DNA of 64,000 nt from Polyangium mundeleinium (GCF_028369105.1 NZ_JAQNDO010000001.1:1843711-1907710); one strand, 5' to 3'. Shown: positions 3-33,216, counted from the first letter of the stretch. Numbers and translations are program-made. The notes: generated from the sequence alone by a model not told the origin.

Positions 3-3000
3 ACCTGGGAGCGTCGGTCGAGCGTCATCAACAACCCCGACGGCTCCGTGGTCTTCAAGATGGAGGGGGCCGAGGTGCCGGCGGGCTGGTCGCAGCTCGC
101 GACGGACATCGTCGTCTCCAAGTACTTCCGCAAGGCCGGCCTTCACGGGAAGAAGGACATCGGCGAGACCAGCGTGCGTCAGGTGGTCGAGCGCCTGGCC
201 AAGACGATCCGCGAGGCGGGCGAGACCTTCGGCGGCTACTTCGCCAGCACCAAGGAAGCCGAGACCTTCGAGGCGGAGCTCACCTTCCTCCTCGTGAACC
301 AGTACGGCGCCTTCAACTCGCCCGTCTGGTTCAACTGCGGCCTCTGGCACCGCTACGGCATCGTCGGCGCGGGCGGCAACTACGCCTGGACCGAGACCAA
401 GCAGCCCTTTGATCGCGAAGAAGGCGACGGCTCCATCTGCGAGGTCTCGAACGCGTACGAAAAGCCGCAGTGCTCGGCGTGCTTCATCCAGTCGATCAAC
501 GACGACCTGATGAGCATCTACGACCTCGTGAAGAGCGAGGCGCGGCTCTTCAAGTACGGGTCGGGCACGGGCACGAACTTCAGCACCATCCGGGGCAAGC
601 AGGAGAAGCTCTCGGGCGGCGGTACGAGCTCGGGGCTCATGAGCTTCCTCGAGGTGTTCGACCGAGCGGCCGGGGCGACGAAGAGCGGCGGTACGACGCG
701 GCGCGCCGCGAAGATGGTCTGCCTCGACATGGACCACCCCGAGATCGTCGACTTCATCCAGTGGAAGGTCCGTGAGGAGCGCAAGGCGCAGATGCTCATC
801 GGCGCCGGCATGTCCTCCGACTTCAACGGCGAGGCCTACCACACGGTCAGCGGCCAGAACTCGAACAACTCCGTCCGCGTCACCGACGAATTCATGCGCG
901 CGGTTTCCACCGGAGGGGCTTGGGAGACGCGGGCGCGCACCACAAACGACGTCGTCGAGACGCACAACGCGAAGGATCTCTGGCGTTTGGTCGCCGACGC
1001 GGCGTGGGCCTGCGCCGACCCCGGCGTGCAGTACGACTCGACCATCAACCGCTGGCACACCTGCCCGAACTCGGGGCGCATCAACGCCTCGAACCCGTGC
1101 TCCGAGTACATGTTCCTCGACGACACGGCCTGTAACCTCGCGAGCCTGAACCTCACGAAGTTCCTCCGCGCCGACGGCTCCTTCGACATCGAGGGCTTCC
1201 GCCACGCGACGCGCGTCTTCTTCGTGGCGCAGGAGATCCTCGTGGACTTCTCGTCCTACCCGACGAAGCCCATCGCGCGGAACTCGCACGACTACAGGCC
1301 GCTCGGGCTCGGGTACGCGAACCTCGGCACGTTGCTCATGCTCCTCGGCATCCCGTACGACTCGGACCAGGGGCGCGCGGTGGCCGGCGCCATCACGGCG
1401 ATCATGTGCGGCCATGCGTACAAGGTCTCGGCCGAGATGGCCGGTTCACGCGGGCCGTTCCCGGGCTACGCGAAGAACCGCGAGCCGATGCTCCGGGTGA
1501 TGGGCCTGCACCGCGACGCGGCGTACGCCATCGATCGGGAGAAGTGCCCCGAGCCGCTCTGGCGCGCGGCGTGCGCGGACTGGGACGAGGCGGTGCGCAT
1601 CGGCCACCAGAACGGCTTCCGCAACGCGCAGGCGACGGTGCTCGCGCCGACCGGGACGATCGGCCTCCTCATGGACTGCGACACGACGGGCATCGAGCCC
1701 GACTTCGCGCTCGTGAAGTTCAAGAAGCTCGCGGGCGGCGGCTACTTCAAGATCGTGAACCAGTCCGTGCCGGAGGCGTTGCGCCGGCTCGGCTACAGCG
1801 AGCACGAGGTGCAGGAAATCGTCGCCTACGTGTCGGGCACGAACACCCTGCTCGCCGCGCCGAACGTGAACCGCGCGTCGCTCAAGCAGCGTGGCTTCAC
1901 GCATGACGACCTCGCGAAGGTCGAGGCGGCCATCCCGGGTGTCTTCGACCTCGGGCTCGCGTTCAGCCCGTGGGTGCTCGGCGAAGAGGCGTACGTGCGG
2001 CTCGGCATCACGCCCGAGCAGCGCCAGACGCCGGGCTTCTCGCTCCTCCGCGCGCTTGGCTTCTCGTCGTCGGAGATTGCCGAGGCGAACGAGGTCATCG
2101 TCGGTCGTATGACCGTCGAGGGCGCGCCGCACCTGCGCGAAGAGCACTACGCGGTGTTCGATTGCGCGAACCGTTGCGGCAAGATTGGCAAGCGGTTCCT
2201 CGCGCCGATGTCGCACGTGCGCATGATGGCGGCGGCCCAGCCGTTCCTCTCGGGTGCCATCTCGAAGACGGTGAACTTGCCGAACGAGGCGACCGTCGAG
2301 GAGGTGCAGAAGATCTACGAGGAGGGCTGGCGCCTCGGCTTGAAGGCGGTCGCGCTCTACCGCGACGGCTGCAAGGCGTCGCAGCCGCTCTCCGCGTCGG
2401 GTGATTCGAAGGAGGAGAAGGCGGAGAAGGCCGAGGCGAAGGCCGAGGTCGTGATGGCCACGCAGGCGCCTGCGGGGCTTGCGGTCCGCCCGACGGGTGC
2501 GCGGGTGCGTTTGCCGAAGAAGCGCACGGGCTTCACGCAGGAGGCGATCGTCGGCGGGCACAAGATCTTCCTCCGCACCGGCGAGTACGTCGATGGCACG
2601 CTCGGCGAGATCTTCATCGACATGCACAAGGAGGGCGCGGCCTTCCGTTCGCTCATGAACTGCTTTGCCATGAGCGTCTCGGTGGGCTTGCAGTACGGCG
2701 TGCCGCTCGAGACCTTCGTCGATCAGTTCACGTTCACGCGCTTCGAGCCGCAGGGCATGGTCGAGGGGCATGACTACGTGAGGCTGTCGACGTCGATCGT
2801 CGATTACATCTTCCGTGTACTCGGCATCGAGTACCTGCACCGCTACGACCTCGCGCACGTGCAGCCGCAGCCGACGGCGACGATCCAGGATCCGACGGAG
2901 ACGCGGGCGCAGGAGAGCTCGTCGGCCGCGCCGGTGCTGCCGGTTGCGCCGGCCCGCGTCGAGACGCAGGAGCGCGTCACGAGCGCCCTCGATGCGCAGC

Positions 3001-3113
3001 TCGAGGACATGATGGGCGACGCCCCCGTGTGCGACGGTTGTGGCCACATCACGGTCCGCAACGGCGCTTGCTACAAGTGCCTCAACTGCGGCAACAGCAT
3101 GGGTTGCAGCTAA
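3..3113 (+). CDS. nrdJ: Class II (adenosylcobalamin-dependent) ribonucleotide reductase, 5' partial
   Basis: The frame is open from the window edge, so the true start lies upstream. The N-terminal [16 protein letters not shown]...VVSKYFRK and C-terminal [27 protein letters not shown] zinc-ribbon tail are typical of NrdJ. Length exceeds 1000 aa. Confidence 0.9.
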
Positions 3114-3283: not shown

Positions 3284-3742
3284 ATGCTGACTTCCGCTCG
3301 CGCGTGCACTGCCCTGCTCACGTTTGCGCTTGGCGCGCTGCTCTTCACCGGCTGTAAGAAGGAGGAAGAGGCGCCTCAGGCTGTCCCGCTCCCGTCGGCG
3401 GCTCCTGCGCCGGTCAAGGCCACGGAGGATACGCCTCAGGCTGCACAAGGCTCGGCTGCGGGGAGCGCTGCGCCTGCGGAGGCTGCGCCTACGCCGTCGG
3501 CTGCGCCGACGGAGCCTCCGAAGGCTGTGGCGGCGCCGTCGATTGACGGGTGTTGCTCGGCGCTTCAGGCCTTGGCGAAGGACACGAAGGCGACTTCGAC
3601 GGTTCGGTCGAAGGCTGCCACGGCTGCGTCGATGTGCGCGGGCACGGCGAAGCTCGTCAAGGAAGGCAAGGCTCCGCGCTCGACGGCGCTCACGCAGATC
3701 CGCGCCACCATGGCCGGGAGTGCGCCGGCTGCCTGCAACTAG
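3284..3742 (+). CDS. Hypothetical Ala/Pro-rich lipoprotein
   Basis: Signal peptide with lipobox LLFTGC. The sequence is low-complexity AP-rich with a Cys-containing C-terminal segment. It is convergent with thiL. Confidence 0.5.
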   Translation: MLTSARACTALLTFALGALLFTGCKKEEEAPQAVPLPSAAPAPVKATEDTPQAAQGSAAGSAAPAEAAPTPSAAPTEPPKAVAAPSIDGCCSALQALAKDTKATSTVRSKAATAASMCAGTAKLVKEGKAPRSTALTQIRATMAGSAPAACN

Positions 3743-3757
3743 TTCGAGGTCGAACGA

Positions 3758-4717
3758 TCAGCCGAAGTGGTCGTAGCCGCGCTCGTCGAGCGGCGTGAGC
3801 GTGCCGTCGGTGTGCTCGACGGCGATGCCGATCTTCCCGCCCTGGGCTGGTACAACGCGCCCGATCCGCTTGAAACCCGCGGGGACACGGTCCTCCGGCA
3901 CTGTCACCACGACTGCGTAGTCCTCGCCGCCTTCGAGCGCGAGCTGGTACGGGTCTGCCTCGGCGAGTGCTGCGGCGCGCTCGAGCTCCGGTGTGAGGAG
4001 CGTCGACCGATCGAGCACCACGAGCACGCCGCTCGCTCGCGCCACGTGCCCCACGTCTCGCGTGAGCCCGTCCGACACGTCGATCGCCGCGCTCGCCACG
4101 TCCCGCGCGGCGAGCCCTGCCGCGATGCGCGCGATGGGCCTCCGGTAGGCGCGCACGGCCGGGGCTGCGTCCGCCTCCCGCTCGCGCCCTCGGCCGATCA
4201 GCACGAGACCCGCTGCCGAGAGCCCGAGGGGCCCTGCGATCGCCAGGACCTCCCCGGGTTTGGCGCCTGACCGACCGAGCGGACGCGGCGTCTCGCCGAG
4301 CACCGTCGTCGTGATCGAAATCTCTTGCCCGCGTGCGAGGTTTCCACCGATGATTTGTGTACCAACTTCCTCTGCTGCCTCGCGTTGTCCTTCGGCGATG
4401 GCGCAGAGGTCCTCGTCGGTGACGTCGGCCGGCAGTACGAGGCCCGCGAGGATGCCGAGCGGCGAGGCGCCCATGGCTGCGAGGTCGCTCGCTGCGGCCA
4501 TCGTCGCGCGGTAGCCGAGGTCTGCCATCGAGACGAGGTCGCGGCGGAAGTGGATGCCTTCGACCTGCGCGTCGACGGTCCACACGAGGGGCTCTTGGCC
4601 GGGCGCGATCACGGCCGCGTCGTCGCCGATGCCCACGATCGTCCGGCTTGAGCCGTTTGCGCCGAACACGCGCGAGAGCATGTCGATGCGCGCTCGCTCC
4701 GAGCTTCGAGCTGTCAT
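3758..4717 (-). CDS. thiL: Thiamine-monophosphate kinase
   Basis: AIR-synthase-related fold. Motifs GDDAAVI and VDAQVEGIHF are typical of ThiL. Confidence 0.85.
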   Translation of the reverse strand: MTARSSERARIDMLSRVFGANGSSRTIVGIGDDAAVIAPGQEPLVWTVDAQVEGIHFRRDLVSMADLGYRATMAAASDLAAMGASPLGILAGLVLPADVTDEDLCAIAEGQREAAEEVGTQIIGGNLARGQEISITTTVLGETPRPLGRSGAKPGEVLAIAGPLGLSAAGLVLIGRGREREADAAPAVRAYRRPIARIAAGLAARDVASAAIDVSDGLTRDVGHVARASGVLVVLDRSTLLTPELERAAALAEADPYQLALEGGEDYAVVVTVPEDRVPAGFKRIGRVVPAQGGKIGIAVEHTDGTLTPLDERGYDHFG

Positions 4718-4726
4718 GCCCCGACT

Positions 4727-6175
4727 TTACGCGAACCGGACCGAAATCGCTCCGTGCGAGGGCGGCGCGGAGGGGCGCGACGCGGGCAAACGCACGACGA
4801 AGACGGCGCCCGTCGGCTCGTTGCCCTCGATGTGCACGCTCCCGTGGTGCGCCTCGACGAGCCGCTTCACGATCGAGAGCCCGAGCCCCGTGCCGCCGTG
4901 CTCACGCGTCGAGGACTGATCCACCTGGTAAAACGGGTCGAAGACCTTGTCGCGCTCGGCGGCCGGGATGCCGATGCCCGTGTCGGTCACGCGCACCTCG
5001 ACCATCTGCCGGAGCGGCGCGAGCAGCACCATCCCGGGCTCGTCGCCGCCGTCCACCTCGGTGGCCATCTGCCGCGCGACGATCTGCACCGTGCCGCCCG
5101 GCGGCGTGAACTTGATGGCGTTCTCGCCGAGGTTCACGAACACCTGCCGCAGCCGCTCCGGATCGCCGAGCACGAGCGGCAAGTCCGCCGGCGCGTCCAC
5201 GGTGAGCGTGACGCCCTTTTTCGTGGCGACGGGCGCGACCGTCGAGGCCGCCTCGGCGAGCACCGCGCCGATCGCCACGTCGCTCCGGCGCATCATCACG
5301 GTGCCGCTCTCGAGCTTCGAGAGGTCGAGCAGGCTCATGATGAGCTTCAGGAGCTGATCACTCTTCGAGTGGATGATCTGCACGAAGTCGAGCTGCGGCC
5401 CCGTGAGCTCGCCGGCGATGCCGCCCACGAGCATCTCGCTGTAGCCGAGGATCGAGGTGAGCGGCGTCCGGAGCTCGTGCGAGATCGTTGCGAGGAAGTT
5501 CGACTTCAGCTTGTCGAGCTCTTGCTGCCGCTCGTAGGCCTGCTCGAGCGCCGCGTTTTTCTCGGAGAGCTCGCGGTAGCTCTCGCGGATCGACGCGATG
5601 TGCATCTTCGAGGTGAGCAGGGCCTTGTGCCCGCTCCAGAGGATCACGTCGAGCACGGCGACGAGGTGCTTCGCGACGGTCTCGGCCGTGGCCTCGGTCG
5701 CCCGCGCCATGTGCGGCAAAAGCTCCGCCGCGCGCGCCGGGTCGACACCCTCGATCGCGAGCAGCGTGTCGGGGACGCTCTCGACCTCCGGAGAAAGGTA
5801 GGGGCCGAGGATCGCGCGGCCGATGGTGCCGCCTTCGTATTCGATCGGGACGACGCGGTAGCGCGCGCCGGTGAAGCAGCCGTGCGTGGCGCCTTCGCTC
5901 GACGTGACGCGGAGGCGTTTGACCTCGGAGACGATGGCGCCGCAGGCGCGGCGGCCCACGGGCTCCTCGTTGATCATCGCGCAGAGCGGGGCCTCGCGGG
6001 ACGAGCTCGCCAGGCTCACGCCCGAGTTCGACACGATCCGGACGGGCATGCCGAAGACCTGCTCGATCGAGCCGACCATGCCACGCATCGCTTCGCGGTC
6101 GACGAGGTCTTCGAGTCGGAGCGGTCCGAGCCCGAGGCCAAGCGCGTCGACGTCGACCGAGCGCTCGTCGCTCAA
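4727..6175 (-). CDS. Sensor histidine kinase with N-terminal PocR-like sensory domain
   Basis: H-box FLATISHELRTPL and ATP-lid HGGTGLGLSIV are present. The N-terminal ~150 aa form a Cys-containing sensory domain, tentatively PocR-like. The start is uncertain: TTG at 6175 has a GGAGG SD and overlaps the upstream stop, while the first ATG is at 6088. Confidence 0.8.
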   Translation of the reverse strand: MSDERSVDVDALGLGLGPLRLEDLVDREAMRGMVGSIEQVFGMPVRIVSNSGVSLASSSREAPLCAMINEEPVGRRACGAIVSEVKRLRVTSSEGATHGCFTGARYRVVPIEYEGGTIGRAILGPYLSPEVESVPDTLLAIEGVDPARAAELLPHMARATEATAETVAKHLVAVLDVILWSGHKALLTSKMHIASIRESYRELSEKNAALEQAYERQQELDKLKSNFLATISHELRTPLTSILGYSEMLVGGIAGELTGPQLDFVQIIHSKSDQLLKLIMSLLDLSKLESGTVMMRRSDVAIGAVLAEAASTVAPVATKKGVTLTVDAPADLPLVLGDPERLRQVFVNLGENAIKFTPPGGTVQIVARQMATEVDGGDEPGMVLLAPLRQMVEVRVTDTGIGIPAAERDKVFDPFYQVDQSSTREHGGTGLGLSIVKRLVEAHHGSVHIEGNEPTGAVFVVRLPASRPSAPPSHGAISVRFA

Positions 6176-6903
6176 GGAGCGCCTCCGGGCGCAGCGCCGG
6201 CCATCCTCCCGCCCATTCGCGCGGCGATGAGCTCGCGGAATGGCGTCGTCACGCCGAGCTGCTGCGCCGCGGTCGAGACGAGGTCGTCGCCGTCGATCGA
6301 GAGCTTGCGCGAGAGCTGATGGCTCTGATCGAGCGAACGCCACGTGGACCAGAGCAGGCAAACGAACGTCTCGACGACGCCGATGCCCCTCGTCGCGACT
6401 GCGCGGAAGACCGGCTCCTTGCCGCGTGCTGCGAGCCGCGCGAGCTCTTCGTCGCTGCGGATGTCCGGCAGATCCCGTTTGTTGAACTGGATCACGAGCG
6501 GCATCTTCGAGATCTCGATGCCGTTGTCGCGCAGGTTCTGGCGCAGATCGAGGAAGGCGTCGGCGTTGCGTTGGGTCTCGGAGATGCGCGAGTCGGCGAT
6601 GAGCGCGACGCCGTCGGCGCCTTGCAGGACGAGCCTGCGGGTCGCGGCGTGGATCGGCTGGCCGGGGACCGTGAAGAGCTTGATGCGGAGCGAGACGTCG
6701 CCGTCCTTCGAACGGAACGTGAGCGGCAGGAGATCGAAGAAGAGCGTGCGATCGTCCTGCGTCTCGAGCGTCATGAGCCGCCCGCGCGCGTCGGCGCCGG
6801 CGCGGCTGTGCAGAGCGACCAGATTTGTGGTCTTTCCGCTCAGCGCAGGACCGTAATAGACGAGCTTGATCGAGATCTCGCGTGATGCGAAATCGAGCTG
6901 CAC
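6172..6903 (-). CDS. MglA-family small Ras-like GTPase paralog with ~50-aa C-terminal extension
   Basis: SREISIKLVYYGPALSGKTTNL (P-loop), DRTLFFDLLPL and TVPGQ align closely to M. xanthus MglA. GTG start. No MglB/roadblock gene is adjacent. Confidence 0.8.
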   Translation of the reverse strand: MQLDFASREISIKLVYYGPALSGKTTNLVALHSRAGADARGRLMTLETQDDRTLFFDLLPLTFRSKDGDVSLRIKLFTVPGQPIHAATRRLVLQGADGVALIADSRISETQRNADAFLDLRQNLRDNGIEISKMPLVIQFNKRDLPDIRSDEELARLAARGKEPVFRAVATRGIGVVETFVCLLWSTWRSLDQSHQLSRKLSIDGDDLVSTAAQQLGVTTPFRELIAARMGGRMAGAAPGGAP

Positions 6904-6948
6904 GCTTTTACTATCGCATGGGCCGAGGGCGCACGTCCCCCGGGATCG

Positions 6949-8718
6949 TCACTTCGCGGCCGCGTCCGTGGTCCAGAGCGAGCGGCGCATGGTTTCGAGC
7001 CGCTCGACCACGCCCGTGAGCTCGCGCGCCTCCGCGTCGCAGGCCTGCGTCGCGGCCTCCACGCCGGGCGCCTTGCCCGCTCGCTCGGTGCGCGCGGCTT
7101 CCAGCACCTCGATGACCTCGCGGTGCAGCTCTTCGCCCGCGGTCACGACCCACTGGTCGAGCCGCTGCGCGAACTCCTGGATCATCTCGTCGAGCTTCGG
7201 GCCGACGCGCGCGGCGGCCTCGCGCAGCGCGTTCGGGGCGAGCTCCTTGGCGCGCTTCCTCGTCTCGGCCTCGACCTTGTCCTTCACGTACACGGCGAGG
7301 ACGGGCGAGGCGAGCAGGAGCAGGCCGCCGAGCAGGACGTTCGTGAACATCACGCCGAGGCCGAGCGTGAAGAGCGCGAAAACGCCCACGTCGTAGCCGA
7401 GCGTGTCGACCTCCACGCTGGGCGAGCGGACGTCCGAGCCGAGCGCCTGCCCGACACGCTTGGCCACGTCGTGCGCGTCCTCGCGGACGAGCGCGATCGT
7501 CTTCTCGGCCAGCGCTTCGAGCGCGTTCGCGATCTCCTTCGTCTCGGCCTGCGCCCAGTCGGCGAACGTCTTCTCCAGGAAGGGGCCGAGCCAGACCTTG
7601 ATGTCTTCGGCCGAGTGGTTGTCGACGAGGTCCGGGATCTGCCGGGTCACGTCGTCGACGAAATGAGCGAGATCACGCTGCACCCAGGCGCGGATCGCGG
7701 CGACCTCCTCGCGGATGCCCACGCGACGCTCATCGATCGTGCGGGACTGGCCTGCGAGGTCCTTCTCCAGGAGGTCGATGCGGCGCGCGAGCTCCTCGCT
7801 CGACATTTGCGCGGCGCGCCTGCGCGCGTCGATGCCCTTCACCAGCATGCGCGCGGCTTCGAGGCCCTCGCCGAGCGCGTTGTCGAGCAGGATGCGGCCT
7901 CGCTCCTCGGCGAGGAACTTCGTCAGGTGCCCGAGCAGCTCGGGCATGCCGCTCTCCTCGGGGTGCCCCTCGGCCGCGCGCTTCGCGCTGACGGGGAAGA
8001 CCACGGGCGTGCGGATCAGCTTGGCGAGCTCGGTGCGGATGTAGGCGAGCGCCTCCTCCTCCTCGTCCTCGCTCCAGATGTCCTTCTTGGTGACGACGAA
8101 GATGATCTTGTCGCGCGACTGGCCGAGCAGCTTCTCGTTGAGGAAGACGCGCTCGCTCTCCTTGAGCGGCTGACCCGCGTCGATGAGGAAAAGCACGGCG
8201 TCCGAGCGCGGGATGTAGCTGTAGGTGATGTCCGCGCGCTGGAGCGAGAGGTCGTTCACGCCTGGCGTGTCGACGAGCACGATGCGCTCGCGGAGCAGCT
8301 CCGCCGGGTAGAAGACCTCGAGGTGCTTCACCTCGCTCGTCGCGCTCTCGGAGCCTTTTTCCTGACCGACGGCGAATTTGCGCACCTCCTCGAACGGCAT
8401 CGTCGTGCGCTCGCCCGAGGCCCGCACGAGCTCCGCGCGCGGCTCGGGCGCGTATTCGAGGTGGTGGATGACGGCCGTCGTCGGGGTCACGCCGACGGGC
8501 AGGACCTCGGCGCCGAGCAGCGCGTTCACGAACGTCGTCTTGCCGTGGTTGAACTCGCCGACGACGACGAGGTGGAAGCGGTCGGCGGAGAGTTTGTCGA
8601 CGACGTCGCTGCCGAGGCGGCCCGCGAGGGAGCGCGCGCCGACGCGGCCGGCGATCGAGAGCAGCTCGCGGAGCGTAGTGGTGATTTCGACCTGTCTCGT
8701 GCGGAATGTCTCGAGCAT
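6949..8718 (-). CDS. Bacterial dynamin-like GTPase (DLP)
   Basis: G1 VVVGEFNHGKTTFVNALLG and G3 DTPG are followed by a long helical stalk and two TM-like hydrophobic segments near the C-terminus. The start is set at MLETF, 4 nt after the upstream M48 stop. Confidence 0.8.
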   Translation of the reverse strand: MLETFRTRQVEITTTLRELLSIAGRVGARSLAGRLGSDVVDKLSADRFHLVVVGEFNHGKTTFVNALLGAEVLPVGVTPTTAVIHHLEYAPEPRAELVRASGERTTMPFEEVRKFAVGQEKGSESATSEVKHLEVFYPAELLRERIVLVDTPGVNDLSLQRADITYSYIPRSDAVLFLIDAGQPLKESERVFLNEKLLGQSRDKIIFVVTKKDIWSEDEEEEALAYIRTELAKLIRTPVVFPVSAKRAAEGHPEESGMPELLGHLTKFLAEERGRILLDNALGEGLEAARMLVKGIDARRRAAQMSSEELARRIDLLEKDLAGQSRTIDERRVGIREEVAAIRAWVQRDLAHFVDDVTRQIPDLVDNHSAEDIKVWLGPFLEKTFADWAQAETKEIANALEALAEKTIALVREDAHDVAKRVGQALGSDVRSPSVEVDTLGYDVGVFALFTLGLGVMFTNVLLGGLLLLASPVLAVYVKDKVEAETRKRAKELAPNALREAAARVGPKLDEMIQEFAQRLDQWVVTAGEELHREVIEVLEAARTERAGKAPGVEAATQACDAEARELTGVVERLETMRRSLWTTDAAAK

Positions 8719-8722
8719 CGTC

Positions 8723-9616
8723 CTACCCGACCACCTTGATGATGTCGTGCACCTTCTCGTCGACCTCTTCCATCGAGAGGCCGGGGCCTTCCTGGCCGAT
8801 GTGCTTCTTGTAAAGCTCACTCTCGGCGAACGTGCGCAGGGCCATCACGCGCTTCGGCAGGTAGGGGTGGCTCGCGAGCAGCTCGCGGTAGCGGCCCACG
8901 CCCTCCCGGCCCTCCTCGTACTGCGCGAGGAACGCGTCCATGTTGAGCTCGGCGTAGAGTTTTGCCGATCCGAGCGCGAGCTTGGCAAAGGTCCGCTGCG
9001 CGACCTCGAGGCTCCTGCAGCAGAGCAGCCCCGCGCGATCACACGTGACCTCGGCGCGGCGCGACCAGCTCGACAGCGCGACCACCGCGGGCTCGACCAG
9101 CGGGCCGAGCAAGCGCGAGGCCATGATCTTGAGGTAGTGCATCGCCGTCAGGTAGACGACGTGGCTGTTGTGGATGTGGCCGCACTCGTGGCCGATGACG
9201 TTTCGCAGGTCCTCGTCGGAGAAGTGATCGACGAGCGCGGAGTGGACCATGATGAACGAGTCATCGTTCGTCCCGTACGTCGCCGCGTTCATCTGCGGGT
9301 TGTTCAGGATGTAAACGGTCGGCGTCGCGATGCCGAGCGTCTGCGCGCATTCGGCGGCGATGCCATGCACGCGCGGGAACTGGTTCGTCCCGACCTTCAC
9401 TGCGTGGCCGAGGAGATCACTCTTGCCGACGGCCTTGAAGAACCGGACGGAGGCGGCGACCGCCAGCTCGACCGGCTTCATCTTGTCGAACGCGGCGCGC
9501 GTCGTCCGATCGGAGACGTACGCATACGCGTGTCCACCCCCGTCCACGCCGCCTGCGCGCTGTTCTTTGCGGTTCTCGATGAAGCCCTTGAAATCGAGCG
9601 TCCCGACTTGTGCCAT
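8723..9616 (-). CDS. M48-family zinc metalloprotease (HtpX-like)
   Basis: HECGHIHNSH contains the HExxH motif in an M48-like context. It is first in the minus-strand run M48, DLP, MglA-like, HK, thiL. Confidence 0.75.
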   Translation of the reverse strand: MAQVGTLDFKGFIENRKEQRAGGVDGGGHAYAYVSDRTTRAAFDKMKPVELAVAASVRFFKAVGKSDLLGHAVKVGTNQFPRVHGIAAECAQTLGIATPTVYILNNPQMNAATYGTNDDSFIMVHSALVDHFSDEDLRNVIGHECGHIHNSHVVYLTAMHYLKIMASRLLGPLVEPAVVALSSWSRRAEVTCDRAGLLCCRSLEVAQRTFAKLALGSAKLYAELNMDAFLAQYEEGREGVGRYRELLASHPYLPKRVMALRTFAESELYKKHIGQEGPGLSMEEVDEKVHDIIKVVG

Positions 9617-9702
9617 GGTCCTCGAAGGTAACGGCGTGCCTCCTACAGCGCAACCGTCGGCCCAGGATCCACCACGAAAATCAAAACTCCTTCACGCGCC
9701 CT

Positions 9703-10674
9703 TCACACGCCGAGCATTTCGGCGAGCTCGCGCGTCGAGAGCGCCTCGATGGCCGCGCCGCGCGCCACGAAGCGCCGGTAATCTTTGAAGGCGACCACGC
9801 CGCGCGGGCGCAATTCGTAGTCCGTGATGCGCGTGATCGTGAAGCGAAGCGTCGCGAAGAGCGCCGCATCGCGGAGCGCCGCTCGCTCGTCGTCCGCGAG
9901 GGCGCGGACCGTGGAATATCCGCGCGCGAGCGCCCGCGCGAGGCCTCGATCGAGCCCGTCCCCGAAGCACCACGCGAGCACCGTGACCATGAGGTCGAAC
10001 GCGGCCGCGCCGCTCGACGCGCTCTCGAAATCGAGGAGCGCGGTGAGCGCGCCGTCCCGGAACAGAACGTTGTCCCGAAAGAGATCGGCATGGATCACCG
10101 GGAGCGTCGGGCCGAGGCTCACACGGGAGAGGTGGTCGAGCCGCCGTTCGAGCGCGGGCAGGATTTGCTGCACGTGCTCCGGTGCGTCCGTCCGCTCGCG
10201 AAGGCCCGCGAGCCGCGCCGCGAGGTCCTCGGGGCCGAACCGCGTCATGAGCGGCTCGCCGAACGACGCGCCCGCGAGGTGGACACGGGCGAGCCCTTCC
10301 CCGACGGCGCGCGCGTGCGCCTCGGTCACCCCGCGCTGACAGCGGACGTCGCCTTCGATCCACGGGAAGACGACCGCGGGTTTGCCCGCGTGTTCGGCCA
10401 CGAACGAGCCGCCTCCGGAGGCGAGGAGCAGCGGCATGGGGGTGGGCACGCCGCGCTCGGCGAGGTGCGCGAGCAGGCGCGCCTCCCGCTCGGCCGAGGC
10501 CACATTCGCGCCCTCGTAGATCCGCAAAAAGACACGGCTCCCGCCTTCGATAGCGAGCTCGTAGCTCGTGTTTACGCTGCCCGCGTCGAGCCCGCGGGCG
10601 CCCGTGACGACGAGCCCGAAGCGCGCGCCGAGCGCCTGCGCATCATCCTGCGAGAGTGCCGTGAAGATGCCCAT
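9703..10674 (-). CDS. thrB: Homoserine kinase type II (APH-like phosphotransferase family)
   Basis: MGIFTALSQDDAQALGARFGL resembles the ThrB2 N-terminus, and the APH-fold catalytic region HADLFRDNVLF is present. Start chosen at the internal ATG at 10674. Confidence 0.75.
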   Translation of the reverse strand: MGIFTALSQDDAQALGARFGLVVTGARGLDAGSVNTSYELAIEGGSRVFLRIYEGANVASAEREARLLAHLAERGVPTPMPLLLASGGGSFVAEHAGKPAVVFPWIEGDVRCQRGVTEAHARAVGEGLARVHLAGASFGEPLMTRFGPEDLAARLAGLRERTDAPEHVQQILPALERRLDHLSRVSLGPTLPVIHADLFRDNVLFRDGALTALLDFESASSGAAAFDLMVTVLAWCFGDGLDRGLARALARGYSTVRALADDERAALRDAALFATLRFTITRITDYELRPRGVVAFKDYRRFVARGAAIEALSTRELAEMLGV

Positions 10675-10754
10675 GTCCGGCTGCACGGTACCAAGGCGTG
10701 GCCTCTCGCGCCCCGGGGATCCGTGCGTTATGAAAGGGGGGCACGAATCCATGC

Positions 10755-12635
10755 TTGGGGGAGACGCTCCGGCGAGCGGAGCTTGGCCCTCAAACCACCG
10801 TCCGAATGCAACAAATCTACGGAAACACCACGGGGCTGAGCCCCCACGCGGTTCGACTGCTCGAGCGTATCTATCGGCGCAAGGTCCCCCTCGATCACGT
10901 GGCCACGCCGGAGCTCGTCAAATCCCTCGCCGAGGCCTCGCACGTGACGGGGCGCCAGGTCGGCGCGCTCGTCCATCGATCGGGCGAGATCGACTACGTC
11001 GTCGTCGGTGACGCGACGAAGCTCATGCTCCCCGACATCGGCCGCCTGCGCGCCGCCGAGGGCCGCTTCCGCGCGCTCCGCCTCGTTCACACGCACCTCT
11101 ACAACGAGCAGCTCACGCGCGACGACATCGTCGACCTCGTGCGCCTGCGCCTCGACCTCGTGGCCGCGATCCAGCTCTCGCCCGAAGGCGAGGCGAAGAC
11201 GATGGATCTCGCGTACAACACGCCGCCATCCCCGGTTGCAGAGGGCGAGGATCCGCGAAATGGGTTGCCCTATCGGCGCGTGGGCCCGCTGCCCGTGGGC
11301 CGCATCGACATCCATTTCGGCGGGCTCATCAGCGCGCTCGAAGACGAGTTCGCCCGAAGGTCGCGCATCTTCACGCACGCGAAGGACGGCCGTGCGATCC
11401 TCGTGCACGTCGCGGAGAAGTCGAAGCAAGGCGCGTATGCGGAGGCCGAGGACAGCCTGCGCGAGCTCGCCGAGCTCTCGCGCACCGCGGGCGTCGAGGT
11501 CGTCGACAACGTCGTGCAGCTCCGCGAGAAGATCGACCCGCGCCTCGTCGTGGGGAAGGGCAAGCTCGACGACATCGTCTTGCGAGCGGCCGAGCTCGAC
11601 GCAGCGACCTTGGTCTTCGATCGCAACCTCACGCCTTCGCAGGCCTCCGCGATCTCCAAGCACGCCGACCTCAAGGTCATCGATCGGACGCAGCTCATCC
11701 TCGACATCTTCGCGCAGCGCGCCGAGTCCGCGGACGGCAAGCTCCAGGTCGAGCTCGCACAGCTCAAGTACGCCCTGCCGCGCCTCGCGTTGAAGGACGA
11801 CTCGCTCTCGCGCCTCACCGGCGGCATCGGCGGGCGTGGCCCCGGCGAAACCAAGCTCGAAATCGGGCGCCGCCGCGCCAAGGAGCGCGTCTCGTTCCTC
11901 GAAGCGCAGCTCAAAAAGCTCTCGCGTCAGCGCGAGCAGCGGCGCCGCAAGCGCGCGCGCAAGGACGTGCCGATCGTGAGCATCGTCGGCTACACGAACG
12001 CGGGCAAGAGCACGCTCCTGAACACGCTCACGGGCTCGGACACGATCGCGGAGAACAAGCTCTTCGCCACGCTCGACACGCGCTCGCGCCGGATCCGTTT
12101 TCCCGAAGAACGCGAGGTGATCATCACGGACACCGTGGGCTTCATCCGCGAGCTGCCGAAGGACCTGTTCGCCGCGTTCCGCGCCACGTTCGAGGAGGCC
12201 GCCGACGCGGACCTCATCCTGCACGTGGTCGACGCGAGCGACCCGGCCCACGACCAGCACATCGCGACGACCGAGGAGCTGCTCGGCGAGCTCGGGCTCT
12301 CGTCGATCCCGCGGATCCTGGTCTTCAACAAGGTCGACCTCGTCGAGAAGGGCGAGGCGCGGCGGCTGCTCTTCGGCAACAAGAGCGCGGTGCTCGTCTC
12401 CGCGACGAACCGCGAGACGACACGCGCGTTGCTCGCGACGATCGCCGATCGGCTGAAGGATCGGTGGGAGCAGGCGAGGACGGTGCCGGCCTACGACGTG
12501 GACGAGGACGAAGCGCAGGCAGGCGAGGGCGACGCCGCGGATGCGGCGCCTGCCGAGGAGGCGGAATCGTCGCTCACGACGCTCGCCGAGCTCACGGCGG
12601 GCAAGCGTTATCGGCGGACGACGTTGCGGGTTTGA
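10755..12635 (+). CDS. hflX: GTPase HflX with long N-terminal extension
   Basis: HflX N-domain and G-domain motifs VSIVGYTNAGKSTLLN and DTVGF are present. The ~190-aa N-terminal extension leaves the start uncertain (alternative ATG at 10806). Confidence 0.85.
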   Translation: MGETLRRAELGPQTTVRMQQIYGNTTGLSPHAVRLLERIYRRKVPLDHVATPELVKSLAEASHVTGRQVGALVHRSGEIDYVVVGDATKLMLPDIGRLRAAEGRFRALRLVHTHLYNEQLTRDDIVDLVRLRLDLVAAIQLSPEGEAKTMDLAYNTPPSPVAEGEDPRNGLPYRRVGPLPVGRIDIHFGGLISALEDEFARRSRIFTHAKDGRAILVHVAEKSKQGAYAEAEDSLRELAELSRTAGVEVVDNVVQLREKIDPRLVVGKGKLDDIVLRAAELDAATLVFDRNLTPSQASAISKHADLKVIDRTQLILDIFAQRAESADGKLQVELAQLKYALPRLALKDDSLSRLTGGIGGRGPGETKLEIGRRRAKERVSFLEAQLKKLSRQREQRRRKRARKDVPIVSIVGYTNAGKSTLLNTLTGSDTIAENKLFATLDTRSRRIRFPEEREVIITDTVGFIRELPKDLFAAFRATFEEAADADLILHVVDASDPAHDQHIATTEELLGELGLSSIPRILVFNKVDLVEKGEARRLLFGNKSAVLVSATNRETTRALLATIADRLKDRWEQARTVPAYDVDEDEAQAGEGDAADAAPAEEAESSLTTLAELTAGKRYRRTTLRV

Positions 12636-15787: not shown

Positions 15788-18103
15788 ATGTTTGTCGAGT
15801 GTTGTGCGCGGCGACGATCGGCGCGTGGGGCGCCGGCGAGAGCACGGAGGTCGGTCGTGGAGATGAGCGTGACGATGCCGGCGGCGGGGATGGCAGGGAC
15901 GCCCGAACGGATCCCGGGCGCCGCGTTCCGAGCTGCGGCGGCCCTGCACCTGCAACGAAACACGCACCTCTCACGCGAAGCCCTCGCGCGGGACCTGCGC
16001 GATCGGCTCGCGCGGCGCGGGATTCGCTACCACCTGCGCACGCTGAAGCGGCAGCTCTCGGGGGCGGTCGCGACGGTGCCGCCCGAGGTCGACCGCGCGC
16101 TGCGAGAGGCGATCGCCGAGGTGGGAGGCGAGGACGCGATCGCCGCAGTCGAGCGTGCCCTCGTCGAGGCCGGGCTCGCGGGCGCGTCCTCGGCCACGGC
16201 GCCCACGTACATCGTCTGCGAGCGGATGCTGCCGCTCGCCCAGCTCTGGCTCTACCTGCACCCCGAGCGATCGAAGCGTGCGCTCGCTTTTCGCCTGCGC
16301 GAGGAGCTCGAGCGGAGCGGGATCCGCCTCAACGTCGACTCGCTCCAGAGCATCCTCGCCGGTAAGCAGAGGCTCGTGCGGCGCGAGATCCAGGACGCGC
16401 TCTTCGCGCTCCTGCGCCACGATGGCGTGACGTCGTCGGCCGACGCCGAGGCGCGCATCGACGCGATGTCGCGCGAGATCCTCGGCGCGCAGGAGGGCCG
16501 GGTCTTCGAGAGCGCGCGCCGGATCCACGAGCTCGCGAAGGCGTGGAAGGTCGAGCACAAGGAGCCGTCGTCACGCAGGCTCGCGCTCTTGCTCAAGGAG
16601 CGGCTCGCCGAGCGAGGGGTCGTGATCGGCCTGCCGCACGTGCAGAAGCTCGTCGACGGGCGCGCGCGTCGCGTGCGGCATGCAATGTCGAGGGCGATCG
16701 AGTCGATCCTGCGCGGAGACGCGGCGTCTGTGGTGATCGAGGCGCCCGCCACGAAGGACGGGCCGCCCACGGGCGTCGAGCTGGATCTCGCCTGGGTGAA
16801 GGCCGCGCCCATCGCCGAGCTCGCCCGCAAGCACGTGGCCGAGAACCCGGGCATGACGATGCGCAAGCTCGCGATCCGCATTTCGCGTGAGGTCGAGGCA
16901 TTCGGCTACGTCACGAGCCCGAACACGATCCAGCCGATCCTTGGGGGTCATAAGAAGAAGACGCGCGGCTTCATCTACCGCGCCATGCTCCACCTCGACG
17001 GCGTCGCGCCGACGCGCGTGCCCGAGGAGCACGTCTTCGGGGCGCCGCACGGCGAGCGCTCGACCGAGCCTCCACCCTCGGCGGATCCACCGCTCGACGC
17101 CGAGTCACGCCCGCGGAGTCATCTCGCCCCAAAAGCATCGAGCCCTGACGGGGCTGCCCGCAAGCCGCGCCCCGAGGGCCTCGGTTCGAGCCCGGCGGCG
17201 CAGTCCCCGTTCGGGGCGTATCGCGCGGCGATCCGGCGGTATCAGGTGCTCGATCGTGAGACCGAGCTCGATCTCGCCTGGCGGTACCGGCGCGAGGGCG
17301 ATCACGCGGCCGCGAACACGCTCGTGGAGAGCCACCTGCAATTCGTGGTGAAGGTGGCCGCGCAGTACCGAGGTTACGGCATGCAGCTCTCCGACCTCGT
17401 GGAGGAGGGCAACCTCGGCCTGCTCGAAGCGGTCCGACGGTTCGAGCCGTCGCGCAACCTGCGCTTCAAGACGTACGCGGTCTACTGGATCCGCGCCTAT
17501 ATCGTGGACCACTTGCTCCGCGAGTGGAGCATGGTCGGCGGCGGGACGGGGCCGCTCGTGTCGCGCACGTTTTTCCGGCTGCGGCGCGAGCGGGCCAAGC
17601 TCGAAATGCAGCTCGGCGAGGGCGACGCCTCGATCGACACGTTGCTCGCGACCCGGTTCCAGACGACGGAGGACGCGATCCGATCGATGTCGCAGCGGGT
17701 CGCGTCGCGCGACACCTCGCTCGACGCGCAGGCGCGAATGGAGGGCGGGCCGACGCTGCTGGAGATGCTGCGCGATCCGTCGTCGGATCCGGAGCACCTC
17801 ACGGCGAGCGCGGAGCGCGACGCGTTCGTCCGCGGCGTGGTGGGCCGCGTGTGGAAGGCGCTCGACCCACGCGAGCGGCTCATCGTGGAGGAGCGGCTGC
17901 TCTCGGACGACGACGAGGTGAGCCTCGCGGATCTCGGCCGTCGTCTCGGCGTCTCGCGCGAGCGCATGCGGCAGCTCGAAGCGCGTACGAAGTCGAAGCT
18001 TCGCAGCGCGTTCGAGGCCGTCGTGCGCGAAGGCAGCGAGGCTGCCGAGGTGCTGCTCGCGGCGACGCAACCCGAGCCCGAGATCGAAGCGCTCTGCGCT
18101 TGA
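15788..18103 (+). CDS. RpoH-like sigma-70 family factor with ~480-aa N-terminal extension built from four ~55-aa repeats
   Basis: The C-terminal 290 aa carry sigma regions 2-4 (VESHLQFVVKVAAQYRGYG...EEGNLGLLEAVRRFEP). The N-terminus shows four repeats of LAxRLREELERRGIR..L..L.G. Alternative start at 15863. Confidence 0.85.
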   Translation: MFVECCARRRSARGAPARARRSVVEMSVTMPAAGMAGTPERIPGAAFRAAAALHLQRNTHLSREALARDLRDRLARRGIRYHLRTLKRQLSGAVATVPPEVDRALREAIAEVGGEDAIAAVERALVEAGLAGASSATAPTYIVCERMLPLAQLWLYLHPERSKRALAFRLREELERSGIRLNVDSLQSILAGKQRLVRREIQDALFALLRHDGVTSSADAEARIDAMSREILGAQEGRVFESARRIHELAKAWKVEHKEPSSRRLALLLKERLAERGVVIGLPHVQKLVDGRARRVRHAMSRAIESILRGDAASVVIEAPATKDGPPTGVELDLAWVKAAPIAELARKHVAENPGMTMRKLAIRISREVEAFGYVTSPNTIQPILGGHKKKTRGFIYRAMLHLDGVAPTRVPEEHVFGAPHGERSTEPPPSADPPLDAESRPRSHLAPKASSPDGAARKPRPEGLGSSPAAQSPFGAYRAAIRRYQVLDRETELDLAWRYRREGDHAAANTLVESHLQFVVKVAAQYRGYGMQLSDLVEEGNLGLLEAVRRFEPSRNLRFKTYAVYWIRAYIVDHLLREWSMVGGGTGPLVSRTFFRLRRERAKLEMQLGEGDASIDTLLATRFQTTEDAIRSMSQRVASRDTSLDAQARMEGGPTLLEMLRDPSSDPEHLTASAERDAFVRGVVGRVWKALDPRERLIVEERLLSDDDEVSLADLGRRLGVSRERMRQLEARTKSKLRSAFEAVVREGSEAAEVLLAATQPEPEIEALCA

Positions 18104-31081: not shown

Positions 31082-31157
31082 GCTGGCGTAGCTCAACCGG
31101 TAGAGCACCTGCCTTGTAAGCAGGGGGTTAGGGGTTCAAGTCCCCTCGTCAGCTCCA
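31082..31157 (+). tRNA. tRNA-Thr (anticodon TGT)
   Basis: Cloverleaf folds with a 7-bp acceptor stem, anticodon loop CTTGTAA and encoded CCA. Confidence 0.9.
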
Positions 31158-31279
31158 CCGGACGTCAGAGGCGGAAGGCTCGGACGAACGAGATCTAAAA
31201 ATCTCAGGAGACGAACCGACCGAAACAGAGTAGAGAGGGGACCCGCGAGCCCTTGGATCTCGCGAGACGTTGAAAATCT

Positions 31280-31364
<85 letters not shown>

Positions 31365-31450
31365 GAGACGCCGATGAGGCGCCTCGACCCGCGGAGTCGG
31401 ACAGTCGGTACGTAGACGAGGCCGGGGGGACTCCTCCCCGTTCTCTATCT

Positions 31451-31525
31451 GCGGGCGTAGCTCAGTTGGTAGAGCGTCAGCCTTCCAAGCTGAACGTCGC
31501 CGGTTCGAACCCGGTCGCCCGCTCC
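31451..31525 (+). tRNA. tRNA-Gly (anticodon TCC)
   Basis: Acceptor stem GCGGGCG/CGCCCGC and anticodon loop CTTCCAA. Confidence 0.9.
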
Positions 31526-31541
31526 GCCGGACCGGCTCCAT

Positions 31542-31617
31542 GCCCACCTAGCTCAGTTGGTAGAGCACGTCCTTGGTAAGGACGAGGTCGTCGGTTCAAT
31601 CCCGATGGTGGGCTCCA
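31542..31617 (+). tRNA. tRNA-Thr (anticodon GGT)
   Basis: Acceptor stem GCCCACC/GGTGGGC, anticodon loop TTGGTAA, CCA encoded. Confidence 0.9.
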
Positions 31618-31681
31618 GCAAGCGCAAGGAAAGGACAGCGAGCGCGACCGTCTCGGTCGGCAACCGTCAGGAGCAAGAACG

Positions 31682-32872
<1,191 letters not shown>

Positions 32873-32878
32873 CGAGGC

Positions 32879-33079
32879 ATGATGTCGGTGCAGGGCGGCG
32901 GGTCCGGTGGCAGCGGTGGGGCCACGGGAGAACGAGGGACACGCATCCCGATCTCGCTGGCCTGCACCGAGTGTACGGCAAGAAACTACAAGACGACCAA
33001 AGCTCCCGGCGACTACGTGGAACTGAAGAAGTTCTGCAAGCAGTGCAAGAAGCACACGCTGCACCGGGAGACGAAGTAG
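32879..33079 (+). CDS. rpmG: 50S ribosomal protein L33 (C4 zinc type) with Gly-rich N-terminus
   Basis: [19 protein letters not shown]...CKQCKKHT. The start codon is uncertain. Confidence 0.8.
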
Positions 33080-33140
33080 TCAGATCCGAAGTAGACGAAC
33101 TGCTCGGCTCGTGGCATCAGTCCCGGGTCGAGCAGGTTGA

Positions 33141-33216
33141 AGGGGTATAGCTCAGCTGGTAGAGCAGCGGATTCCAAATCCGCAGGTCGGGAGTTCGAGC
33201 CTCTCTGCCCCTGCCC
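33141..33216 (+). tRNA. tRNA-Trp (anticodon CCA)
   Basis: Acceptor stem AGGGGTA/TGCCCCT and anticodon loop TTCCAAA. Confidence 0.9.

Follow-up and report, generated by a model that had tools for sequence, protein, structure and literature searches.

Does the closely packed minus-strand gene run in this stretch of Polyangium mundeleinium DNA, which encodes an M48 peptidase, a dynamin-like protein (DLP), an MglA-family GTPase, a PocR-type histidine kinase, and a thiamine-phosphate kinase (thiL), constitute one functional unit? A sequence-only reading of the window (the whole 64-kb stretch analyzed here) had proposed as much for the DLP, the GTPase, and the kinase. We address this question by analyzing the genes themselves and the arrangement of related loci in other myxobacteria, in metagenomes, and in other phyla.

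All five minus-strand genes are present with the domains that had been claimed, on the basis of Pfam, TIGR, or PDB matches for M48, DLP, GTPase, kinase, and thiL (Table 1). Only thiL (3758-4717) falls outside the interval in which the run had been placed. An APH-family phosphotransferase gene lies upstream of the M48 gene on the same strand, 86 nt away. The tight spacing that had been described is likewise confirmed by the sequence: 4 nt separate the M48 TAG from the DLP ATG, 45 nt separate the DLP TGA from the GTPase GTG, and the GTPase stop overlaps the kinase start within a TTGA that is preceded by GGAGG. A further 9 nt lie between the kinase TAA and the thiL ATG. We interpret the TTGA overlap as translational coupling of the GTPase and kinase. 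A pattern scan, which is weak evidence, found the five-gene run (3758-9616) free of coding-strand intrinsic terminators and showed no promoter-like site between 3500 and 11000. The locus has a core-chromosome setting, between a class II ribonucleotide reductase, thiL, and HflX.

Table 1. Features of the gene run and its upstream neighbor, with positions counted from the first nucleotide of the window.
Feature	Position	Strand	Basis
APH-family phosphotransferase (first gene of the block)	9703..10752	-	PF01636, E 5e-33
M48 zinc metallopeptidase, 297 aa	8723-9616	-	PF01435, E 2.5e-25, 89.8 bits (cutoff 20.3)
Bacterial DLP, 589 aa	6949-8718, from ATG	-	Dynamin_N PF00350, 111.6 bits (cutoff 27)
Hydrophobic hairpin of DLP, residues 443-480	7279..7392	-	Kyte-Doolittle 19-residue maximum 2.08
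SofG-type MglA-family small GTPase, 243 aa	6172-6903	-	M. xanthus MglA, E 8e-48 (phmmer against PDB)
C-terminal extension of GTPase, residues 185-243	6175..6351	-	Three short helices, then a disordered tail (AF2 prediction)
TTGA, GTPase stop/kinase start overlap (-4 nt)	6172..6175	-	Sequence; GGAGG 7 nt upstream of TTG
Cytoplasmic sensor histidine kinase, 482 aa	4727-6175	-	PocR 3e-17, HisKA 1e-19, HATPase_c 2e-28
PocR sensory domain of kinase, residues 23-179	5639..6109	-	PF10114, 63.3 bits (cutoff 23.9)
thiL, thiamine-phosphate kinase (last gene of the run)	3758-4717	-	TIGR01379, 244.9 bits (exceeds equivalog cutoff, 184.15)

The GTPase has no match in Pfam or NCBIfam. Its GTPase motifs, including the catalytic Arg and Gln that had been proposed as a check, are all kept: GPALSGKT at residue 18, Arg52 in DDRTLFF (the equivalent of MglA R53), TVPGQ82 (the equivalent of MglA Q82), and NKRD at 141. 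The AF2 model (pLDDT 81.5, pTM 0.84) has MglA as each of its best 14 Foldseek matches in the PDB (target-normalised TM 0.81-0.90, with 0.85-0.90 for the leading ones). The protein shares the G-domain fold and catalytic residues of MglA, but differs from it in having no mglB beside its gene or elsewhere in the window, in carrying a structured C-terminal extension, and in belonging to a separate clade. The extension, which had been noticed from the sequence, follows the G domain in the model, where the helices at residues 176-195, 197-201, 205-215, and 222-230 have block pLDDT values of 77-93 and residues 232-243 fall below 50. Forty-three family members, drawn from several phyla, have in this region a signature that MglA lacks, [WY]xxLDxx[HYF]x[LF]xx[KR][FLH]G[VLI][DST]x[ED]xF[LIV].

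Comparison with the SofG and MglA clades places the GTPase with SofG, a characterized Myxococcus xanthus protein. The SofG family is split from MglA with 99.2% bootstrap support in a neighbor-joining tree, and the window GTPase shares 56% identity over the G domain with the protein of the Myxococcus sofG locus, against 42% with MglA. We took one Myxococcus locus (L083, also included in the 43-sequence signature alignment) as the sofG locus from its flanking GNAT gene (MXAN_6704; PMC4048283) and two PilT paralogs (MXAN_6705/6706; PMC13584747). Resolution within the family is poor, with only 6% bootstrap support for monophyly of the kinase-linked myxobacterial subclade; the case for orthology with SofG is built on the clade at family level together with synteny. 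We identify the window GTPase by sequence as the ortholog of SofG (MXAN_6703). In addition to the clade (99% bootstrap against MglA), the two proteins share similar length (243 vs 239 aa), a C-terminal helical extension, the intrinsic Arg and catalytic Gln, and the lack of an adjacent mglB. Each is also followed by a PocR histidine kinase gene with a 4-nt overlap.

A tblastn search of the 64-kb window with three MglB queries (E<=1e-4) gave no MglB homolog, in line with the sequence-only reading. In the same survey, the MglB query matched no SofG-family locus, while it matched 24 loci in the MglA-side clade. An MglA counts as “coupled” when its cognate MglB (Roadblock) gene is no more than four genes away (PMC4316618); the window GTPase has no such neighbor, and the MglA family accepts orphan members. 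Table S2 of PMC4316618 places the Sorangium ortholog, sce0386, among the orphan Group 1 MglA proteins, and SofG-type lengths of 239 and 242 aa agree with orphan Group 1 entries in the same table.

The partner kinase carries the H-box histidine (SHELRTP at 232) and the N, G1, and G2 boxes (NLGENAIKF at 348, DTGIG at 398, and GTGLGL at 428) that define the HisKA class. Its PDB matches are of the HK853 type (1e-37 to 6e-40), and no transmembrane segment is predicted. The order GTPase then histidine kinase occurs in 26/26 SofG-centered myxobacterial loci, spanning all sampled suborders and including sofG itself, whose adjacent kinase gene is MXAN_6702. Sequences or gene calls give the 4-nt overlap in four genera (Polyangium, Sorangium, Chondromyces, and Myxococcus). 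In the Myxococcus locus, for example, the gene for a 239-aa GTPase overlaps a PocR-HisKA-HATPase gene and is flanked on one side by a GNAT gene and two T2SSE genes. The partner kinase includes PocR in the Sorangium, Myxococcus sp. CA040A, L008, and L013 loci; the Enhygromyxa, Plesiocystis, and Kofleriaceae partner kinases lack it. The literature that we searched contains no description of this pairing, an absence that does not prove novelty.

SofG is one of the few experimentally characterized bacterial Ras-like GTPases, and its regulation is only partly understood. The kinase encoded beside it is a concrete candidate for the input or the output of SofG signaling. We considered whether the GTPase could instead be an ordinary orphan MglA paralog, next to a kinase through inherited gene order that has no functional meaning. 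Group 1 MglA neighborhoods do vary widely, with no kinase partner named (PMC4316618), and thiL shows that passengers can persist in this block. Nevertheless, the pairing is found in every one of the 26 loci across the sampled suborders, includes a stop-start overlap, stays in place whether the kinase sensor has or lacks PocR, and returns in distant phyla where all other neighbors have changed. This makes a meaningless adjacency very unlikely.

In those other phyla, the same GTPase family occurs in operons of receiver, GTPase, kinase, and, in some cases, a receiver-PilB-like ATPase. We found 15 loci from Gamma- and Betaproteobacteria, Desulfobacterota, and Nitrospirota in which a full-length receiver-MshEN-T2SSE ATPase is next to the GTPase-kinase pair, mostly directly downstream of the kinase. 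The complete receiver-GTPase-kinase-ATPase architecture is Pfam-confirmed in 3 of the 15. The GTPase and kinase reading frames in several other-phylum loci overlap by 4-8 nt or are a few nt apart. These relatives suggest a connection to pili. In Myxococcus and Cystobacter, sofG adjoins two PilT paralogs, and M. xanthus SofG is reported to bind the bactofilin BacP and to place PilB and PilT at the pole (Bulyha 2013, as summarized in PMC4085708). Such interactions are known for M. xanthus SofG alone. The surroundings of the two genes also differ: upstream of sofG in Myxococcus and Cystobacter are a GNAT gene and the PilT paralogs, in place of the M48 and DLP genes of Polyangium, and the 64-kb Polyangium window has no detected pilus ATPase.

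Based on the operons of other phyla and the PilT paralogs beside sofG, we infer that the SofG-type GTPase and its kinase act as a single signaling unit that joins a Ras-like switch to a two-component kinase. In this scheme, PocR would serve as the sensor of a cytoplasmic ligand, kinase autophosphorylation and the GTPase nucleotide state would affect each other, and the output would pass to receiver-domain proteins controlling pilus-type ATPases. Both the physical coupling of GTPase and kinase and the pilus output in Polyangium are putative. A tblastn search of the 64-kb window with one receiver-domain query found no receiver domain, and so, with no pilus ATPase there either, the proposed output is not visible within the window. 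MglB is reported as a GAP for SofG (Kanade 2021, as cited in PMC13408092), and so GTP hydrolysis can be accounted for without the kinase.

In actinobacterial conservons, too, a histidine kinase is coupled to an MglA-family GTPase. They comprise the kinase CvnA, the Roadblock protein CvnB, CvnC, and the Group 2 GTPase CvnD, which has a deviant G4 motif (PMC4316618, PMC13343842). Conservons and the Polyangium pair both lack an adjacent response regulator, an arrangement taken to suggest a G-protein-coupled kinase (PMC4316618, PMC13343842). However, the Polyangium pair has no Roadblock/MglB or CvnC gene and a different gene order. Its kinase is cytoplasmic with PocR, whereas the conservon kinase is membrane-bound with HAMP. 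Its GTPase differs from the conservon Group 2 GTPases in its canonical G4, NKRD, and in its intrinsic Arg. With only the kinase and GTPase of the four genes, no Roadblock, and a canonical G4, we reject membership in the conservons. The distribution of the pair suggests a widespread small-GTPase-plus-kinase cassette, simpler than the conservon, that would control type IV pilus motors.

The other two genes form a second invariant pair. The M48 peptidase has the zinc site HExxH (HECGH at residue 143). It scores 54 against an HtpX equivalog cutoff of 245, far under that threshold, and thus is not HtpX itself. In the DLP, a single GTPase domain with G1 (GEFNHGKT at 54), G3 (DTPG at 150), and G4 (TKKD at 210) motifs precedes a long C-terminal region. 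Its sequence matches in the PDB include Nostoc BDLP (2e-21), Campylobacter DLP1/2, and IniA. No segment of the M48 protein reaches 1.6 on the Kyte-Doolittle 19-residue scale (maximum 1.39), and the DLP hairpin is the only segment at or above that value among the M48, DLP, GTPase, and kinase proteins. This hairpin is probably a membrane-inserting paddle. Dynamin_N, G1-G4, a long C-terminal region, and a hydrophobic hairpin are all shared with Nostoc BDLP, Campylobacter DLP1/2, IniA, DynA, and LeoA. The Polyangium DLP differs in being a single gene, not a tandem pair or a fused double, and in having M48 always ahead of it. M48 is immediately upstream of DLP in 61/61 testable dynamin-centered loci. 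We found no description of this invariant pairing in the literature searched, which again does not establish that it is novel.

The M48-DLP pair might also be read as an anti-phage system of the Eleos/LeoA dynamin type. The DLP does match PADLOC profiles for LeoA (4e-25, residues 125-563) and LeoBC (2e-15). However, there is one DLP gene only and no LeoBC-type partner, neither M48 nor the other neighbors have a PADLOC match, and the pair occupies a core-chromosome locus of 54-98% identity with a fixed neighborhood, not a variable island. We consequently reject Eleos (LeoA/LeoBC) membership and regard a defense role of this type as extremely unlikely.

The pair is most likely, by analogy, a membrane remodeling or repair system. 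Mitochondrial OMA1, an M48 peptidase, cleaves OPA1, a membrane-anchored dynamin-like GTPase (PMC2806285). In both cases, an M48-family zinc peptidase is tied to a dynamin-like GTPase; here, the tie is genetic (61/61 loci). OMA1, HtpX, and Ste24 are membrane-anchored, whereas the Polyangium M48 protein has no predicted anchor; the likeness is one of analogy only. The soluble M48 protease, by this analogy, would process or turn over the dynamin or its membrane clients, and the membrane-inserting DLP would be its constant partner. The M48-dynamin pair offers a tractable bacterial system for asking whether the proteolytic control of dynamins known from mitochondria exists in bacteria.

Are the two pairs, then, parts of one unit? 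The order APH-M48-DLP-GTPase-kinase-thiL is collinear in Polyangium, Sorangium, Chondromyces, and seven metagenomic loci, with the APH gene in the same position in Sorangium and Chondromyces. One possibility is a single co-transcribed M48/DLP/GTPase/kinase module, in which the GTPase and kinase set where and when the dynamin remodels membrane. The collinear order, the gaps of 4, 45, and -4 nt, and the lack of a terminator-like site on the coding strand inside the run would fit such a module. There is also precedent for a dynamin-like GTPase feeding a signaling enzyme, in RdcA acting on DgcE (PMC6510439).

Gene order elsewhere argues against it. DLP is within 10 kb of the GTPase in only 5/20 species-level SofG-centered myxobacterial loci and is missing from its vicinity in the other 15. 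Myxococcus, Cystobacter, Enhygromyxa, Plesiocystis, and Kofleriaceae all keep the GTPase and kinase without DLP. The co-conservation that had been expected for DLP and the MglA-like GTPase therefore fails outside one lineage; within the proposed three-gene module, the GTPase-kinase link holds and the DLP link does not. The M48-DLP pair runs in the opposite orientation to the GTPase-kinase pair in 28 loci, an arrangement explained by one inversion of the M48-DLP segment. With M48-DLP on the opposite strand, co-transcription with the GTPase and kinase is impossible in these loci. Housekeeping argH and a hydrolase gene are found between the pairs in three to four others (L004, L110, L116, and L130), and the corresponding site in two loci (L005 and L006) has no M48-DLP. 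Adjacency of the two pairs is confined to part of Polyangiales.

Functionally unrelated neighbors persist as much as DLP does, or more. The kinase is followed by thiL, a housekeeping passenger, in 14/23 myxobacterial loci, more often than DLP is near the GTPase (5/20), and APH is beside the M48-DLP pair in 26/34 dynamin-centered loci with enough flanking DNA. Thus, synteny in this lineage is not an indicator of function. These counts must also be read with the sampling in mind: the 80 metagenomic loci were gathered with two peptide patterns and are phylogenetically non-independent, and so they reflect few events. We consider a single module unlikely. The deep invariant pairings are GTPase with kinase (26/26, continuing in other phyla) and M48 with DLP (61/61), and not a three-part unit. 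The run is therefore probably made up of two evolutionarily independent two-gene cassettes, the SofG ortholog with its translationally coupled cytoplasmic kinase and the M48 peptidase with its DLP, along with two passengers (APH and thiL), all collinear and tightly packed in Polyangiaceae. Co-transcription of all five genes from M48 to thiL may occur in this family, which would give co-expression without the need for a shared mechanism.

Viewed from the dynamin, the association of the two cassettes is closer. A SofG-type gene lies within about 6 kb of the dynamin in 38/41 determinable dynamin-centered loci, an adjacency that has outlasted both inversion and insertion and that also counts in favor of the single module. 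In some of the inverted loci, only about 590 nt of intergenic DNA is common to both pairs. In that lineage, the two pairs may thus be co-regulated or functionally linked. By analogy, the four genes in Polyangiaceae and related lineages could even act as a eukaryote-like membrane-polarity device, in which the SofG-type switch and kinase would steer the DLP to a site on the membrane and M48 would tune it by cleavage, as OMA1 does OPA1; we consider this quite improbable, with the persistence of co-location through inversion and insertion as the observation that keeps it in view.

The window is best read as holding a SofG-type GTPase/histidine kinase signalling cassette beside an M48/dynamin membrane cassette. 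ORF listing and translation, combined with Pfam and NCBIfam scans, resolve six minus-strand genes at this position. The sequence-only reading had described five of them, from M48 to thiL, and proposed that the dynamin-like protein (DLP), MglA-like GTPase and histidine kinase (HK) form a single module. The run itself is confirmed, with thiL falling just beyond the coordinates that the reading assigned to the run. The spacings noted there also agree with the sequence: a 4-nt gap between the M48 and DLP genes, a 45-nt gap between the DLP and GTPase genes, and a TTGA stop/start overlap, with GGAGG upstream, between the GTPase and kinase genes. The last junction of the run, between kinase and thiL, is a 9-nt gap.

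Features of the gene run and its surroundings (positions within the window)
Feature	Position	Strand	Basis or remark
Class II ribonucleotide reductase gene	48-3113		One flank of run
152-aa ORF	3284-3742	+	No Pfam match
thiL	3758-4717	-	ORF + Pfam/NCBIfam
PocR-HisKA-HATPase histidine kinase gene	4727-6175	-	ORF + Pfam/NCBIfam
GTPase gene (243 aa)	6172-6903	-	ORF
DLP gene	6949-8718	-	ORF + Pfam/NCBIfam
M48 peptidase gene	8723-9616	-	ORF + Pfam/NCBIfam
APH-family kinase gene	9703-10752	-	ORF + Pfam/NCBIfam
HflX gene	10755-12635	+	Other flank of run
Sigma-70-family protein ORF	15788-18103		
tRNA-Ser(cga) call	17393-17483	+	ARAGORN; not reported by Rfam
tRNA cluster (Thr, Tyr, Gly and Thr, then Trp)	31082-33215	+	

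The setting of the run is core chromosome, and the tRNA cluster is consistent with that. Pattern scans of positions 3500-11000, which carry little weight, detected no promoter-like sites, and terminator-like sites there were no different from shuffle expectation. An Rfam scan of the whole window returned tRNAs only; it reported no riboswitch close to thiL or to the reductase gene. The additional tRNA-Ser(cga) falls within the coding region of the sigma-70-family protein and is probably a false positive. Where the window carries the 152-aa ORF, between the reductase gene and thiL, Sorangium and Chondromyces have genes of 168 and 153 aa, also without a Pfam match.

The window GTPase has no match in Pfam or NCBIfam. 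Its assignment as an MglA-like GTPase nevertheless holds at the level of motifs, as the protein retains its P-loop, intrinsic arginine (R52), catalytic glutamine (Q82) and NKRD motif, and it aligns with the MglA structures of M. xanthus and T. thermophilus (E 8e-48). An AlphaFold2 model built from 41 homologs (pLDDT 81.5, pTM 0.84) has the MglA fold, and its 14 best PDB matches are MglA throughout (target-normalised TM 0.81-0.90). Past the G domain, the model continues with three short helices, predicted with confidence, and ends in a disordered tail. A C-terminal signature, [WY]xxLDxx[HYF]x[LF]xx[KR][FLH]G[VLI][DST]x[ED]xF[LIV], is common to 43 SofG-family members and is not present in MglA. 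In hundreds of further proteins from a representative search (P0139-P0270; total lengths 300-800 aa), an MglA-like G domain, 42-50% identical to the query, forms the N-terminus and precedes a long C-terminal region.

The survey of Wuichet and Søgaard-Andersen (PMC4316618, Table S2) includes, among Group 1 MglA without coupled MglB, Sorangium sce0386 (242 aa), M. fulvus LILAB_12945 (239 aa) and MXAN_6703, that is SofG (239 aa after start correction). The Cystobacter ortholog (locus L014) led to a 239-aa Myxococcus protein (P0355, locus L083), whose gene is flanked on one side by a GNAT gene and two genes for T2SSE ATPases. These are the counterparts of MXAN_6706, MXAN_6705 and MXAN_6704 as described (PMC13584747, PMC4048283), and the L083 GTPase gene is thus sofG. 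In both Myxococcus (L083:4111-7713) and Cystobacter (L014:6440-8460), sofG is divergent from the GNAT gene and the two PilT-paralog genes equivalent to MXAN_6704-6706; the Polyangium window contains none of these neighbors.

Comparison with the SofG and MglA clades (neighbour-joining tree of 79 sequences, numpy NJ bootstrap) places the window GTPase and the L083 protein together in a SofG family with 99% bootstrap, split from canonical MglA and from long-tailed MglA-like proteins; the order of branches within that family is poorly resolved. The window GTPase is 56% identical to Myxococcus SofG versus 42% to MglA. Of the loci on the MglA side of the tree, 24 have an MglB homolog adjoining the GTPase gene; no SofG-family locus has one, and none occurs anywhere in the window. 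The window GTPase is a further member of the already known SofG kind.

We find that the GTPase and the kinase are constant partners across the myxobacterial loci examined. GTDB species representatives were scanned with a SofG-family alignment, and tblastn was run with the window proteins. A histidine kinase lies directly downstream of the GTPase in all 26 testable myxobacterial loci, among them Polyangium, Sorangium, Chondromyces, Cystobacter, Myxococcus, Enhygromyxa, Plesiocystis and Kofleriaceae. thiL follows the kinase in 14 of 23 testable loci, and a DLP occurs within 10 kb of the GTPase in 5 of 20. The proposed three-part module survives in part: its GTPase-kinase pairing is upheld, but its link to the DLP does not hold outside one lineage. 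Sorangium, Chondromyces and Myxococcus share the 4-nt overlap of the GTPase and kinase genes. PocR is found in the kinases paired with the GTPase at the Sorangium, Myxococcus, L008 and L013 loci and was undetected in those of Enhygromyxa, Plesiocystis and Kofleriaceae. Because the kinase sensor varies in this way, the constant element is the GTPase and kinase core.

The DLP has a partner of its own. Scanning metagenome contigs with a DLP alignment gave 80 loci (54-98% identity), and M48 lies directly upstream of the DLP in all 61 that were testable. Arrangement could be judged in 41 dynamin-centred loci of sufficient length: M48-DLP on the strand opposite to thiL, HK and GTPase (28 loci); collinear in the window order (7); collinear with 2.5-2.7 kb inserted between DLP and GTPase (3); and no SofG-type gene nearby (3). 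The opposite-strand arrangement (type B) is the outcome that a single M48-DLP inversion within APH-M48-DLP-GTPase-HK-thiL would give. In type B loci, a peroxiredoxin (AhpC/TSA) gene and a gene for a conserved 335-347-aa protein without a Pfam match often precede M48 on the same strand (e.g., L120:3355-3873 and L121:3928-4944). The insertion between DLP and GTPase codes for argininosuccinate lyase (argH), with a recognisable hydrolase too in L006. The order in L005 and L006 is APH-argH-hydrolase-GTPase-HK-thiL, without M48-DLP; a divergent M48-DLP hidden in these loci was rejected, since the 2.7-2.8 kb between APH and GTPase is argH plus the hydrolase.

As M48-DLP is invertible, displaceable or absent among loci, we regard it as a discrete, separately transcribable cassette. 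The persistent neighborhood around it takes in plainly unrelated genes (thiL, APH and argH). One locus (L122:3410-7740) lacks the GTPase and kinase genes and has thiL, on the opposite strand, immediately upstream of M48-DLP; the block has apparently lost its SofG cassette here. At another (L004:5530-7270), the DLP frame is broken by in-frame stops and shifts near residue 433, which points to a pseudogene or else to an assembly error of the MAG; the stops kept this DLP from use in an alignment.

The window DLP, encoded by a single gene with no tandem pair, contains the G1-G4 motifs together with a single hydrophobic hairpin (residues 443-480). By sequence it is related to Nostoc BDLP, Campylobacter DLP1/2 and IniA, and to the LeoA profiles. 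It is unlikely that M48-DLP is a defence system: the LeoBC partner is absent beside the DLP, M48 has no PADLOC match, and the pair is set in the core genome. The M48 protein of this membrane cassette contains HECGH, scores far under the HtpX equivalog thresholds, and has no predicted membrane segment. The sole M48-dynamin relationship that we found in the literature is the cleavage of OPA1 by mitochondrial OMA1 (PMC2806285), to which the window pair is likened by analogy and not as evidence of homology.

SofG-family relatives beyond Myxococcota occur in a conserved operon (L027, L034, L036-L041, L043, L046, L048, L050, L051, L060 and L076; e.g., L041:9453-14039). A receiver or receiver-HD protein gene comes first, followed by the genes for the GTPase, for a histidine kinase and for an ATPase of PilB/MshE type with receiver, MshEN and T2SSE domains (743-803 aa). 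The lineages bearing it include Marinobacter, Pseudomonas zhanjiangensis, Sulfuricella, Geobacterales, Desulfoluna and Thermodesulfovibrionales. The ATPase is full-length in 15 loci, and the whole architecture was Pfam-confirmed in three. Some of these operons have extra parts, either a C-terminal zinc ribbon or a PAS kinase. This operon form fits what SofG is known to do, namely position PilB and PilT, and it fits the PilT paralogs that adjoin sofG in Myxococcus and Cystobacter. A SofG-like subgroup (L023-L030) shares the C-terminal signature and has neither kinase partner nor pilus link. Pilus genes had been guessed for its loci; Pfam instead places the GTPase (e.g., L025:6655-13180) between methylmalonyl-CoA mutase/MeaB and ribBA, an AAA ATPase and a VWA protein.

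Gene context suggests that the GTPase/kinase cassette might be a G-protein-coupled two-component sensor, in which each partner would regulate the other, and that it could signal to receiver proteins controlling pilus-type ATPases. On the same grounds, the kinase is more likely to be an effector or input than a GAP. The nearest described system is the conservon, which requires a Roadblock protein and CvnC, whereas the window cassette has neither. In the literature searched, we found no description of the invariant GTPase-kinase cassette (the original SofG paper, Bulyha 2013, not being covered), of the receiver/PilB-like operon form in other phyla, or of the invariant M48-dynamin pair. In M. xanthus, the kinase gene that follows sofG, MXAN_6702, offers a clear lead for experiments.
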